From a phage, in NCBI GenBank assembly GCA_012178725.1, contig GCA_012178725.1_3030.1: a stretch of DNA of 64,000 nucleotides; one strand, written 5' to 3'. The position numbers and the translations under genes are program-made. The notes under the pieces are model-generated. The model searched no databases. It saw nothing but the letters and a program-made list of their open reading frames with translations, and had not been told where the DNA came from. Below are positions 34,033 through 62,514 of this stretch, one piece after another (positions within the stretch are counted from its first letter, which is position 1; each line of letters starts with the position of its first letter).

Positions 34033-34551
34033 TTAATAGCCTCGGTCTTGACGAGCGAAATTTTCAGCATTTTTCAGATAATAAAGTTTAAATATTTCTT
34101 CAGCTGACATTCCAAGAGCAATAAATTTATTCATGAAAAAGTGAAATTGGTCAATCAGTTCAAATTTAATTTCAAGCTGATCTTCAGGAGATAAGTCTTG
34201 AATTTTCTTGGATTGCATTTCAGAATAACGTTTCTTCCAAGGTTTCCATACGGCAGAAGCTTCTTTTTCACCATTACTCATACCACCAAGAGAAGTATAT
34301 AGCTCGCGAGTTTCATCTGCGATATAATCGTCTTGGTTTCGCAACCAAGCAAGAACTTCTCCTGCAGTTTCAAGTGAATCAGGATGACGATTTGTTTCTG
34401 GTTTATCATTAGCCAAACGAATCTGTAAATGCCGCTGCATATCAAGCATAACCTGCAGTGGGTCAATATTGTGCATAATATTCTCAGCATATGCACGAGT
34501 TGCTTTATCAACACCTTCGATCAAATGAGCGCATTCATTAAAGTGAGCCAT
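34033..34551 (-). CDS. 56: dCTPase/dUTPase gp56
   Basis: ORF-track frame trimmed to MAHFNECAHLIEGVD (172 aa, AGGAAA ribosome-binding site); matches T4 gp56. Confidence 0.9.
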   Translation of the reverse strand: MAHFNECAHLIEGVDKATRAYAENIMHNIDPLQVMLDMQRHLQIRLANDKPETNRHPDSLETAGEVLAWLRNQDDYIADETRELYTSLGGMSNGEKEASAVWKPWKKRYSEMQSKKIQDLSPEDQLEIKFELIDQFHFFMNKFIALGMSAEEIFKLYYLKNAENFARQDRGY

Positions 34552-34622
34552 TATTTTTCCTTTCAATTCATGGGTTAGTAGATTAATTATACAATAAATA
34601 TATAAAGCAATAAGGAGGACAT

Positions 34623-34823
34623 ATGGTACAAAAATTAATGGCACTTGTTAATGCCATAAAAGGTAATAAAAAACGTATAGCTTTTACTATTTCTGCTATG
34701 GTAGGAATTTTACTCTGGAACTTTATTCTATCACCTGTTGCAATTGCACATGGTATTAATATTCCAGTAGTTACTCTTGATACATTTGTAGATTTAGCAT
34801 TTGCTTTAGTTGGGTTGATTTAA
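34623..34823 (+). CDS. Small membrane protein (66 aa), divergent orientation
   Basis: AAGGAGG ribosome-binding site 5 nt before ATG; two hydrophobic segments; stop overlaps the gene 61 stop (TTAA). Confidence 0.55.
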   Translation: MVQKLMALVNAIKGNKKRIAFTISAMVGILLWNFILSPVAIAHGINIPVVTLDTFVDLAFALVGLI

Positions 34824-35848
34824 ATCTTAGCATATTTAGATAGCCGCATTTTAGCCATCAACCCCTGGGCAATATTATTTTTCATATATTCCATAATTTG
34901 TTCAGGGGTTGCACCTTCCTTTCTAATCATATCATTAACATCTTTTGATTTCCAGGGAGATTTATCCCAAAACATAACCCTTTCTCCTGCATCAACTAAT
35001 TTAGTCATTCGCTTAATAGTGTCAGGATGACGAGGTTCATTATCTAAAACCCACACTCGTCTATCTTTAAATGGAACAACTTCTAGGTCTAATTGACCAC
35101 CCGTAATAGCTATACCATTTTCAATAAAAAGTGAATCTATAGGTCCTTCTAGAACATATACATCACCATCTTTAACTCGTTCGACTCCATAGATTTTTGT
35201 TGCTTCAGGATAAGCTTTGATGGTGATATATTTTTGGGGAGCATCTTTCTTTAATGCACGTCCTTGAAAAGACTCAGCTTTTCCATTAGCATTATAAATT
35301 GGAATAACAAGACGAGGCTCAGGTATTTCCTTTTTATATGTTCCCGGTGCTATACTATTAACTAATTTAGGCCATTCGGTTGTAAACCAAAGATATTTCC
35401 ATTTATCCTTTGGAATACAACGAGCTTTTACATATTTTATAATTGGATGGTCTTCCGCCAATTTATCTAATCTAACACATGACAGAAGAGATTTAATTAT
35501 TTTCTTCTCAGGTTGTTTAGGAAGTTCTTTAGGTTTTTCTACTGGACGACTTTTACCTTTTTCTTTTCTTATTTCAAAGATATACTCACGATATAAATCG
35601 GGTTCAAACTCCTTTAAATATATTCCGATTGGCGCATGATAGTTACAGTTATAACAATGAATATTTCCTTCATTATTATCGCCATAATACCATCCACGAG
35701 CTTTATTCTGGTCGGTTTTTGAATCTCCACAAACAGGGCATCTAAACCGTAATTTAAAAGTTGAACTATTATTTACTTGTGTGAATTTAGGTAAATGAGC
35801 TAATGCACGGTATGCAAACTCATTATCAATCCAAGGTATTGATGACAT
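34820..35848 (-). CDS. 61: DNA primase gp61
   Basis: 342-aa ORF with zinc ribbon (CPVC...CYNC) and Toprim region; length as T4 gp61. Confidence 0.95.
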   Translation of the reverse strand: MSSIPWIDNEFAYRALAHLPKFTQVNNSSTFKLRFRCPVCGDSKTDQNKARGWYYGDNNEGNIHCYNCNYHAPIGIYLKEFEPDLYREYIFEIRKEKGKSRPVEKPKELPKQPEKKIIKSLLSCVRLDKLAEDHPIIKYVKARCIPKDKWKYLWFTTEWPKLVNSIAPGTYKKEIPEPRLVIPIYNANGKAESFQGRALKKDAPQKYITIKAYPEATKIYGVERVKDGDVYVLEGPIDSLFIENGIAITGGQLDLEVVPFKDRRVWVLDNEPRHPDTIKRMTKLVDAGERVMFWDKSPWKSKDVNDMIRKEGATPEQIMEYMKNNIAQGLMAKMRLSKYAKI

Positions 35849-35850
35849 TT

Positions 35851-36015
35851 TTACTCTTCTTTTTCTTTAGATTCCTCTTTTTTCTTTTTAGGAATCTGTT
35901 CAGGACCTTTATTTACTACAGCGCCTGATGTTGTTCCAGTAGAGATATTTTCAGGATTACCACCTGAATCTCCAGCGACCATATCTTCTTTGATAAATTC
36001 TTTATATGTTTTCAT
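35851..36015 (-). CDS. Small ORF (54 aa), 61.1 position
   Basis: Hand-called MKTYKEFIKEDMVAGDSGGNPENIS...; start inside a 49-bp repeat. Confidence 0.4.
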   Translation of the reverse strand: MKTYKEFIKEDMVAGDSGGNPENISTGTTSGAVVNKGPEQIPKKKKEESKEKEE

Positions 36016-36061
36016 ATTAACCTCTATTCATAAAAGCATTAAAAATTTGGTCATCAATAGA
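36013..36061 (-). repeat. Direct repeat copy 1 (49 bp): gene tail, stop and next ATG
   Basis: catattaaCctctattcataaaagcattaaaaatttggtcatcaataga; 48/49 identical to 36371-36419. Confidence 0.85.
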
Positions 36062-36373
36062 TGGTGCAGTAATATTTTCTGCATCATTTAGCAAATCATT
36101 AATTTCATCAAATAGCATAACACATGTACCTTTATTTCCTGTAATTGTTACTGCGCAATTACGAACGTTTTCTTTATTAAATTTTAGGTTAATATTTTCG
36201 TAATGAAAATCCTTTAATGCTGAATATATTTTTAAAATAAAATTGTCTTTTACTACAATAAACCCAACCTCACTATTAAAACGTGGTTCATGGAAACTGT
36301 AATAAACCTTTTCATCTATAAAATCGTATGAAATTTTTTCCATTTTTAAATATGAAAATTCAGAACTATACAT
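36017..36373 (-). CDS. Hypothetical protein (118 aa), paralog A
   Basis: Ends SIDDQIFNAFMNRG, the same tail as the neighbouring 208-aa protein. Confidence 0.55.
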   Translation of the reverse strand: MYSSEFSYLKMEKISYDFIDEKVYYSFHEPRFNSEVGFIVVKDNFILKIYSALKDFHYENINLKFNKENVRNCAVTITGNKGTCVMLFDEINDLLNDAENITAPSIDDQIFNAFMNRG

Positions 36374-36419
36374 ATTAATCTCTATTCATAAAAGCATTAA
36401 AAATTTGGTCATCAATAGA
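36371..36419 (-). repeat. Direct repeat copy 2 (49 bp)
   Basis: See copy 1. Confidence 0.85.
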
Positions 36420-37001
36420 AACATTTACTTTAGACTGTTTTTCAGATGGCAATTCATATCCACATATTACAATTTTATGATCAATATCAAAATACACAGA
36501 AGCAATATGATTAATGATATTTTCAGTGAAGTCTAAATCGACATCAATATCTTTTTGACCAAAGCCCAAAGGATAAATAATGCGAGTAATTCGATTATCT
36601 TTAACAAAGATTCCACCGACATACTCTGTACTGCGTTTAAAGTCTACACGCCGACGAAATGAAAAATATTCAGGCTCTTTATGAGCTCGGCTCATAGGAC
36701 ACAACGAATAACTAGAATAAGAGATGTCAAATCCTACGCCTTCGATATGAGCCAAAGTGTCATGATTAAACCAATTATAATCGTACGCCAAATCCATTAG
36801 ATTATAATATGTAAAAGGCACCGGATTAACATCATTAGTCACAAGCATGTAATTAGCAACTGCTATAATTTCATTGTTTTTAACGAATACAAACCGTGAT
36901 TGATGCGAATGACCTGGACCCGCGTTTTCACGATTAATGATATAACACTGGGCACCTTTATATTTGTATGTATCTTTGCACTTGTGCATTTGATAGAGCA
37001 T
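36375..37001 (-). CDS. Hypothetical protein (208 aa), paralog B
   Basis: Ends SIDDQIFNAFMNRD; 61.2 position. Confidence 0.6.
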   Translation of the reverse strand: MLYQMHKCKDTYKYKGAQCYIINRENAGPGHSHQSRFVFVKNNEIIAVANYMLVTNDVNPVPFTYYNLMDLAYDYNWFNHDTLAHIEGVGFDISYSSYSLCPMSRAHKEPEYFSFRRRVDFKRSTEYVGGIFVKDNRITRIIYPLGFGQKDIDVDLDFTENIINHIASVYFDIDHKIVICGYELPSEKQSKVNVSIDDQIFNAFMNRD

Positions 37002-37294
37002 TATTCACCTACCACTTCAGCGATGATATTTTTGTTATTAAAGTTTTTATCGCAATACAGAACATAATTATACTGCATTACACCACCAGACTTAAGCTGT
37101 TTTTGCACTTCAGCTTTCATTTCAGGACGATCGCGCTTAACGATATTCATAATATCTGCTTCAATTTGAGTTTCAACCTCAGTCTGATCAGCAGTCATAG
37201 ACCATTCGCACAAATCTTTATCATAACCTGCCATAGCAGGCTGAGCAGCACAAGAAGCTAAAGCAAAAATTGTAGCAAAAATAAATTTTTTCAT
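37001..37294 (-). CDS. sp: Spackle periplasmic protein
   Basis: 97-aa ORF with signal peptide MKKFIFATIFALASCAAQPAMA; size and position as T4 sp. Confidence 0.85.
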   Translation of the reverse strand: MKKFIFATIFALASCAAQPAMAGYDKDLCEWSMTADQTEVETQIEADIMNIVKRDRPEMKAEVQKQLKSGGVMQYNYVLYCDKNFNNKNIIAEVVGE

Positions 37295-37354: not shown

Positions 37355-37654
37355 CTATTTTAAAACTTCTGCGTAATCACATGTTACAAACTGTTTCTCT
37401 AGCTTAACGATCTTACGAAAGTATCTTTTACATTGACGAATCTGTCGCTTAGTAGGGCGCACAGCAAACTTAATAAATTCCACTCGACCAAATGGAGGGC
37501 TTTCTTCTGATGGAATATCTAACACCAATTCCCACGTATCTGCAATAAGTGCTTTGAATTGCGTATTTTTCCTGACGTTATACGGAGTAGGTTTAAATAA
37601 AACAATATGCATATTATCCTCGGCAATCCACTTCACATACTTTCTTGTCATCAA
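37355..37654 (-). CDS. Hypothetical protein (99 aa), 61.4 position
   Basis: Basic ORF. Confidence 0.55.
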   Translation of the reverse strand: MMTRKYVKWIAEDNMHIVLFKPTPYNVRKNTQFKALIADTWELVLDIPSEESPPFGRVEFIKFAVRPTKRQIRQCKRYFRKIVKLEKQFVTCDYAEVLK

Positions 37655-37796
37655 TGAAAGCTTTAACTAATGCTTTATTAACTTCAGCATACTGAGTAGT
37701 AGCCCATTGAACGTCATCTTTCATCATTGTGATTTCTTTAGTAAACATGCTTTCATTCTTAAACCATCCCATAAAAACTACCTTTACCAATTCCAT
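37614..37796 (-). CDS. dmd: Dmd-position 60-aa protein (antitoxin against RnlA/LsoA)
   Basis: 60-aa ORF immediately downstream of gene 41, as T4 dmd; identity by synteny and size. Confidence 0.7.
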   Translation of the reverse strand: MELVKVVFMGWFKNESMFTKEITMMKDDVQWATTQYAEVNKALVKAFIDDKKVCEVDCRG

Positions 37797-62337: not shown

Positions 62338-62514
62338 TCAAGTATTGTAAAACATTCGATGCAATCGCTTATATTGTCGAATCATCTTTTTAGTAGGACG
62401 AGAATAAGTTCCTATACAAGTGGTCATATTAGGGTCAGTAGGACTTCCTTTAATAAAAAGTTTCCAAACCTTACCACCATTTAACTTTTCAGTATAAATT
62501 AATTCGGTTTTCAT
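62338..62514 (-). CDS. Small basic ORF (58 aa)
   Basis: Hand-called MKTELIYTEKLNGGKVWKLFIKGSPTDPNM...; TAATG overlap with upstream stop. Confidence 0.35.
   Translation of the reverse strand: MKTELIYTEKLNGGKVWKLFIKGSPTDPNMTTCIGTYSRPTKKMIRQYKRLHRMFYNT

Follow-up and report, generated by a model that had tools for sequence, protein, structure and literature searches.

Why do two neighbouring phage genes with dissimilar bodies end on practically the same DNA, and what has kept that DNA alike? The question is raised by a locus in a stretch of 64,000 nucleotides (nt) from NCBI GenBank assembly GCA_012178725.1 (contig GCA_012178725.1_3030.1), hereafter the window, within which positions 35,851-37,001 are in focus. 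The window comes from a T4-like phage, a Tequatrovirus of the RB18/RB32 type: its 1.7-kb region shares 98% nt identity with RB18, vB_EcoM_G10400, slur phages and other Tequatrovirus members, and matches spanning at least 80% of the 1701-nt region are present in 217 phage records. Here the gene adfA, encoding a protein of 208 amino acids (aa), is followed by a gene of 118 aa; both proteins end in a common 13-residue tail, and the two genes are joined by a 49-nt direct repeat. The explanation favoured in this work, to which we assign a probability of roughly 70%, is that the locus holds adfA and a single-module paralog sharing a nearly invariant tail, that the repeat encoding this tail is homogenised by recombination or gene conversion, that exchange at the repeat moves a 358-bp unit, and that the tail acts as a docking peptide.

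A coding repeat shared by adfA and its downstream neighbour

The 208-aa gene (36375-37001, minus strand) is adfA, gene 61.2 of T4, whose product gp61.2 is a published inhibitor of the DarT1 DNA ADP-ribosyltransferase toxin. Its protein matches Pfam PF23813 (Anti-DarT factor A) with 451.9 bits (E 3e-136; cutoff 27), residues 1-207 covering profile positions 1-210; like T4 gp61.2 and its RB69 ortholog it lies after sp, and it is 98% identical to the T4-type protein. This open reading frame (ORF) ends in ...SIDDQIFNAFMNRD, and the 118-aa ORF that follows it (36017-36373, minus strand) ends in ...SIDDQIFNAFMNRG. The initial annotation had described a 49-bp near-identical direct repeat at these gene ends, and a repeat search found it again exactly, with an upstream copy at 36371-36419 and a downstream copy at 36013-36061 (both read on the minus strand), 48 of 49 positions identical (98%) and a start-to-start spacing of 358 nt. 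Each copy comprises 14 codons (42 nt) for SIDDQIFNAFMNR plus D or G, a stop codon (3 nt), 1 nt and an ATG (3 nt). The upstream copy thus runs from the final 14 codons of adfA through TAA and 1 nt to the ATG that starts the 118-aa gene, and the downstream copy likewise runs from the final 14 codons of the 118-aa gene through TAA and 1 nt to the ATG that starts gene 61.1 (54 aa; 35851-36015, minus strand), the right-hand neighbour of the array in Tequatrovirus. This composition agrees with the annotated span across the stop and the next start, corrects the annotated 12 codons to 14, and places both copies in the translated frames of minus-strand ORFs.

The sole mismatch is an A/G difference that turns the final GAT (Asp) of the 208-aa gene into the final GGT (Gly) of the 118-aa gene. 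Identity ends sharply on both sides, at GTT versus CCA upstream and at TATAGT versus AAAACA past the ATG, and tail, stop and next start are the only nucleotide homology between the neighbouring genes. A 40-nt core of the repeat, searched with up to 3 mismatches, occurs at just two sites in the window and matched in none of 100 shuffles; with a unique repeat, no shuffle match and hundreds of independent genomes carrying the same arrangement, chance and assembly artefact are ruled out.

How this short stretch came to differ so strongly from its surroundings can be read from a codon alignment of the two genes. Over 98 body codons they share 26% of residues and 44% of nucleotides, and third positions agree at 35%, the random level, their synonymous sites being saturated; over 13 tail codons, 12/13 residues, 38/39 nucleotides and 13/13 third positions are the same. 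Between genera the tail shows nonsynonymous divergence (dN) of 0-0.03 at synonymous divergence (dS) of ~1.0-1.2 (dN/dS ~0-0.03), and a dN near zero at high dS means that selection acts on the peptide and not on the DNA. Because synonymous changes in the codons of this peptide are tolerated between genera, selection on the peptide cannot account for third positions that are identical within one genome. The sequence comparison thus points to a far more recent ancestor of the two tail copies than of the bodies, reached through gene conversion or recombination at the tail.

In a simpler history, adfA or its 3' half would have been duplicated in tandem not long ago and the copies would then have diverged in the ordinary way, with the tails alike only through strong selection on the peptide. 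The genes are indeed adjacent, in the same orientation and distantly related, and purifying selection on the peptide is very strong; nevertheless, random-level third positions in the bodies beside complete agreement in the tail, together with a between-genus tail dS reaching 1.2, cannot be reconciled with peptide selection as the source of nucleotide identity. Moreover, the short family adjoins a different upstream gene in Gaprivervirus and stands alone in other phages. Such a duplication is accordingly given little credence.

Homologous recombination or gene conversion, instead, maintains the near-identity of the two tail copies. Paralogous tails within one genome differ at 1-6 of 46 nt, compared with 4-11 of 46 between Tequatrovirus and Gaprivervirus, and lineage-specific states are common to both paralogs, namely AAT AGA in Tequatrovirus and AAG CGA in the two-gene Gaprivervirus genomes. 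Within Tequatrovirus, the paralogs and the AdfA body types carry mixed combinations of the tail variants GAT GAC, GAC GAT and GAT GAT and of the endings NRD, NKG and NRG.

Proposed exchange at the repeat, gene gain and gene loss

If the repeat recombines, its effects should be visible where closely related phages differ in gene content. Aligned with the window, T4 matches along the entire adfA and 61.1 except for one clean 358-bp gap whose ends fall inside the repeat, and its single tail ends in GGT, as does the downstream copy. The T4 arrangement is the expected product of an exchange between the two copies, or equally the substrate for insertion of a body-plus-tail unit. Exchange between the copies would remove or add a 358-bp unit, which would account for the absence of the short gene from T4 exactly at the repeat.

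The same tail was sought beyond the window in IMG/VR (as protein and as a degenerate tail DNA pattern), in a collection of 5.8 billion proteins (with the family profile) and in annotated phage records. The tail, DDQIFNAFM(N/K)RG, is nearly invariant in ~70 protein clusters, which comprise three subfamilies (AdfA of 208-216 aa, a family of 116-125 aa and a family of 143-148 aa) and a few divergent members; the bodies drop to ~20-25% identity or below while the tail stays almost unchanged. In IMG/VR, matches to the degenerate DNA pattern were confined to 16 T-even contigs, each holding 1-2 copies. In every locus read, the tail-bearing gene or genes lie directly downstream of sp (spackle; 37001-37294, minus strand, in the window), the conserved left-hand neighbour; this slot and the C-terminal tail define the superfamily, and both window genes have them. 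The initial annotation had proposed a survey of T4-like genomes for the tail; in other T-even genera the tail is joined to other gene bodies.

The resulting architectures are diverse. T4 and PE37 carry adfA alone; the window, RB18, KIT03 and Pinarejo carry adfA with the short gene, an arrangement present in at least 217 records; and T2, A6-6 and the phage of locus L008 (L numbers denote the loci compared) carry the short gene alone. In addition, phages of the JS98 type have a 146-aa gene alone, those of the SP18 type a 146-aa gene with a 119-aa gene, those of the RB69 type a 216-aa AdfA alone, and locus L039 a 120-aa single-module gene alone. The counts of two-gene and one-gene genomes are to be read as bounds only. 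The common joint of tail, stop and start could let different bodies combine in different phages.

In T2-type phages, sp is followed directly by the 118-aa gene and adfA is absent (T2 itself, AP018813, locus L043 3026-3688; L008 2195-2857; A6-6, L045 895-1557). Their junction, GGTGA(A/G)TAAT|TAGAGGTTAGTATG, marks a deletion of adfA between two TGA(A/G)TA microhomologies, of which one lies where sp ends and the other where the adfA tail ends. In the literature T2 counts as a phage with no adfA homolog; T2 does carry the short gene.

Recombination-driven gain and loss of anti-toxin genes has a precedent in the same neighbourhood, as T4 amplifies and deletes DNA through 6-10-bp homologies around dmd and tifA (PMC9391042), and the adfA deletion in T2-type phages, at a 6-nt microhomology, resembles those events. 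The laboratory events used 6-10-bp microhomologies, whereas the window has a 49-nt near-perfect repeat that stands in natural genomes and coincides with a conserved peptide. A second comparison is offered by the promoter-early stem-loop repeats (PeSLs) of T4-type phages, which shuffle modules and give rise to mini-circles (PMC2839356, PMC4122927). PeSL cassettes likewise consist of short direct repeats flanking an accessory ORF that is present or absent in close relatives, with recombination between the repeats as the proposed mechanism. However, a PeSL is an intergenic sigma-70 early promoter with a stem-loop terminator, whereas the repeat described here is coding (14 codons, stop and start) and holds no promoter- or terminator-like site on the coding strand; it is therefore not a PeSL.

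Another possibility is that conservation of the 49 nt serves a nucleic-acid signal, for example for ribosome binding and translational coupling, as a promoter or as an RNA hairpin, with the peptide secondary. Some features are suggestive: the repeat contains a stop and the next ATG, the downstream copy has GAGG five nt ahead of the start where the upstream copy has GAGA, and a weak hairpin (UCUAUU/AAUAGA) can be drawn. In addition, the last gene of an array always ends in GGT, which yields the GAGG five nt before the next ATG, and genes preceding a short-family gene end in GAT or AAAGGT. Nevertheless, just the last ~12 nt can serve ribosome binding, and the other codons vary synonymously between genera while the peptide stays fixed. 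A scan of the coding strand for sigma-70-like promoters and for terminators found none in the repeat, and the counts for the region equal those of shuffled sequences. The hairpin scores no better than shuffled sequence (z 0.24 and -1.12), and Gaprivervirus has other codons at the pairing positions. A signal of this kind is an improbable reason for the conservation. A MotA box noticed by eye, TGCTTTT...TAATAT, was dropped, as the box reads TGCCTTC in Gaprivervirus.

The initial annotation had proposed cassette-like exchange or duplication mediated by the gene-end/gene-start junction. This idea is partly right: the exchange part is supported by gain and loss at the repeat (the 358-bp T4 indel) and by the occurrence of the tail on other bodies; the tail itself, however, is not just the trace of a recent duplication but an old family motif. 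That this motif is under strong protein-level selection, and that the 208-aa gene is a characterised anti-defence gene, adfA, goes beyond the earlier description.

Probable kinship of the 118-aa protein with AdfA

What, then, is the protein that shares its tail with AdfA? According to published reports, AdfA came to light when RB69 mutants that escape were found to carry R164H, a two-hybrid assay shows its binding to DarT1, and its T4 allele has His at the R164H position (PMC11257639 / PMC11825919). In the window protein, His165 (ORF numbering; IINHIAS) aligns with RB69 R164 (NINRIAS of the RB69-type protein), so that it has the residue which the literature assigns to the DarT1-neutralising allele.

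The 118-aa ORF is, as judged from its sequence, a real gene. It matches phrog_4122 over its full length (E 8e-71) and thereby belongs with the RB32ORF033c/phrog_4122 hypothetical proteins of T-even phages; full-length relatives occur in 332 phage records from Tequatrovirus and Gaprivervirus, and the dN/dS ratio of its body is 0.21-0.39 in three within-genus comparisons and 0.31 between genera. Annotators had already noted a connection, since the GenBank record of RB18 describes the gene as having 'some similarity to gp61.2; RB32ORF033c', and in KIT03 the two genes both bear the label 61.2.

Several lines of comparison bear out the annotation of the two genes as tandem paralogs: they are neighbours in the same orientation, share the tail and show weak body similarity. 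The further statement that their N-terminal bodies look unrelated needs revision. In a BLASTP alignment, the short protein (residues 21-117) pairs with AdfA 109-207 (33% identity over 102 aa, E 3e-8), a score to which the identical tail contributes. Likewise, the short protein passes the Pfam AdfA threshold only thanks to its tail (30.8 bits, cutoff 27, profile positions 113-211), and its Gaprivervirus ortholog reaches 21.7 bits on the tail alone. With the tail removed from both sides, the short-family profile still scores 8.8-18.7 bits against AdfA, a level reached by 0-3 of 5,000 shuffles, and a more diverse tail-less profile scores 10.5-24.9 bits, reached by 0-7 of 20,000. The tail-less profile matches both AdfA halves, at ~35-74 and 110-177, centred on a shared (V/I)G-x-I-x-VKDN-x-I hairpin.

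Structure prediction is in keeping with this picture. The AlphaFold2 (AF2) model of the 118-aa protein has a mean predicted local distance difference test score (pLDDT) of 83.9, with the body above 90 from an alignment of only 15 sequences, and consists of one beta5-alpha-beta-alpha domain (8-101), a low-confidence linker (102-105) and a tail helix (106-115). The AdfA model (pLDDT 69.7) contains two strand runs and a helix, ordered as in the short protein, ahead of its linker and tail, and the orders of secondary structure in the two models agree. Searched against BFVD with Foldseek, each model retrieves at E<1e-3 only the same four entries, namely two AdfA forms, the 118-aa family and a 145-aa family. 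Solved structures and known folds gave no match, and scans with PADLOC and NCBIfam gave none. Among 1.84 billion representative proteins, HMMER with the short-family profile returned 7 matches at E<=0.001, of which 6 are phage family members or fragments and 1 is a spurious repeat protein; relatives outside these phage families were not found there.

The short gene is thus probably a distant single-module paralog of the two-module AdfA. It differs from AdfA (two modules, ~208-216 aa) in having one module plus the tail, and in carrying Cys at the aligned place of the AdfA specificity position (R164).

AdfA itself resembles an internal duplication of a ~100-aa module of strands, helix and strand, on the basis of an hhalign comparison of its N- and C-terminal halves (P 4e-4) and of the short-family profile falling on both halves. 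AdfA is also mosaic, as seen in Pinarejo (L007 1358-1990), KIT03 (L048 573-1199), L044 and L046. In the forms of 210-212 aa, an N-terminal part like that of RB69 is joined to a C-terminal part like that of T4. The tail alleles NRD, NKG and NRG have been reshuffled among body types; in KIT03, for instance, the T4-type length of 208 aa goes with the NKG tail.

It might alternatively be supposed that the 118-aa ORF is a decaying, functionless remnant, a truncated adfA copy kept by linkage. The short gene is missing from T4 and many relatives, frameshifted copies occur in L041 and in phage 121/2022-2B, and T2 lacking adfN gains nothing from it against DarTG1. Against this stand the dN/dS values and the 332 full-length records given above, as well as the confident model of the body and the retention of the short gene in T2-type phages that lost adfA. 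We regard a remnant as even less probable than either a recent duplication or a nucleic-acid signal.

The frameshifted short-family genes lie at 3437-3794 in L041 and 1201-1558 in L046 (phage 121/2022-2B). In L041 the gene is split into pieces of 63 aa and 68 aa, and the tail is changed to ...FNAFLKRGE. The short gene is therefore decaying in some lineages.

The C-terminal tail, its possible function and the neighbouring genes

The tail is predicted to form an amphipathic helix after a linker of variable length and low confidence. In both AF2 models it is a separate helix with pLDDT 52-62, preceded by a stretch below 50, and the segment before it varies in length and composition among family members. 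Because it combines the most conserved sequence with the least confident packing, it is read from the models as probably a tethered docking or interaction peptide, common to bodies of differing specificity, a role that the initial annotation had put forward for structure prediction to examine and with which the predicted helix after a low-confidence linker fits.

A likeness of the tail to the sliding-clamp-binding C-terminal motif (S-L-D-F-L-(F/Y) type) was considered and rejected, the tail sharing just S-(I/L)-D with the ends of gp43 and gp55, which we take to be gp45-binding motifs; the likeness survives only within the speculative extension given below. The window gp43 ends in ...KASLDFLFG, and beyond the two tail-bearing proteins no window protein carries such a tail.

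With respect to function, the published work provides constraints (PMC11257639 / PMC11825919). Deletion of adfA from T4 shows no phenotype, the main anti-DarTG1 factor of T4 being AdfN (gp30.3), and T4-type AdfA gives no protection in T4 lacking adfN. The natural target of T4-type AdfA is left open by these studies, because the deletion shows no phenotype against DarTG1, and their authors suggest that T4-type alleles target other DarT homologs. The short protein would be a further AdfA-like anti-toxin factor, and the short gene, like the T4-type AdfA alleles, may target other DarT homologs. Together, dmd, tifA and adfA have been named the 'anti-TA island' of T4, after toxin-antitoxin systems (PMC9391042).

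Several observations weigh against the combined explanation of homogenised repeat, single-module paralog and docking tail. As regards recombination, Gaprivervirus tails of one genome are no closer to each other than tails from different genomes of that genus, so that homogenisation is not continuous everywhere and would be episodic or act at the population level; the identity of the Tequatrovirus tails could come from one recent event; and the direction of the 358-bp indel fits loss in T4 and gain in the window lineage alike. As regards kinship, the 118-aa protein without its last 14 residues has no Pfam match, and the curated Pfam model therefore sees mainly the tail. Tail-less hhalign comparisons between the short family and AdfA are weak (P 0.002-0.004, with low probabilities), and the 146-aa family is tied to the others just by the tail and by Foldseek matches that include it. 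The low pLDDT of the tail may stem from shallow alignments (15-16 sequences) and not from true flexibility. Finally, published genetics show that T2 lacking adfN cannot plaque on DarTG1 cells (PMC11257639 / PMC11825919). T2 carries the short gene, and this failure argues against activity of the short gene on that DarT1 at native expression; unlike AdfA, the 118-aa protein seemingly does not neutralise the tested DarT1.

An extension of the docking idea is put forward tentatively and with a good deal of doubt. The tail would be a common adaptor that docks interchangeable AdfA-like specificity domains on one partner, with the tail DNA doubling as the recombination joint. Speculatively, the shared partner would be either a conserved surface of the DarT family or, at the site of DarT action, a component of the phage's replication machinery. 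If this were true, the locus would be a natural cassette system through which anti-toxin specificity diversifies, and the short protein of T2 and RB18-type phages would be a counter-defence factor, so far unrecognised, that acts on DarT variants or on some other toxin. Should the short gene be inert and the tail merely structural, the locus would amount to an ordinary paralog pair in a hyperplastic region.

Part of this picture was already known, namely adfA as an anti-defence gene and the annotators' link between the short gene and gp61.2. The published papers searched gave no account of the relation of RB32ORF033c to adfA, of the tail motif or of a repeat-bounded indel. They were also silent on the paralog having a single module and occurring in T2, on an invariant tail that follows a variable linker throughout the superfamily, and on the tail as a recombination joint. 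The present analysis adds that AdfA belongs to a small, phage-only superfamily that probably includes single-module members, one of them carried by T2, all sharing an almost invariant and probably tethered C-terminal helix. The locus would also provide a clear natural case of a conserved coding joint serving as a recombination site for the gain, loss and swapping of counter-defence modules.

The surrounding genes follow the familiar order. From the ORF list and comparison with T4 and RB18, the minus strand carries gene 41, dmd, 61.4 (tifA), sp, the 208-aa gene, the 118-aa gene, 61.1 and primase gene 61, with tifA (61.4) and dmd (61.5) at 37355-37796 and gene 61 at 34820-35848 (all minus strand). 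TifA (37355-37651, minus strand) corresponds to Pfam DUF7279, and a second DUF7279 paralog of 58 aa lies ~25 kb away in the window (62338-62514, minus strand). In Gaprivervirus, a third DUF7279 paralog, of 73 aa, stands directly after the 119-aa AdfA-like gene (locus L003 2359-2580). RB69-type phages have a 155-aa protein (locus L016 3079-3546) whose C-terminal third matches the 54-aa product of gene 61.1; that product falls on positions 109-154 of the 156 in phrog_2086. Lastly, the interval between gene 56 and gene 61 (34551-34823) is without the dam methyltransferase gene found there in T4 and T2; its position holds a 66-aa plus-strand ORF (34623-34823) that has no Pfam match and that the RB18 annotation describes as similar to RB69ORF029w.

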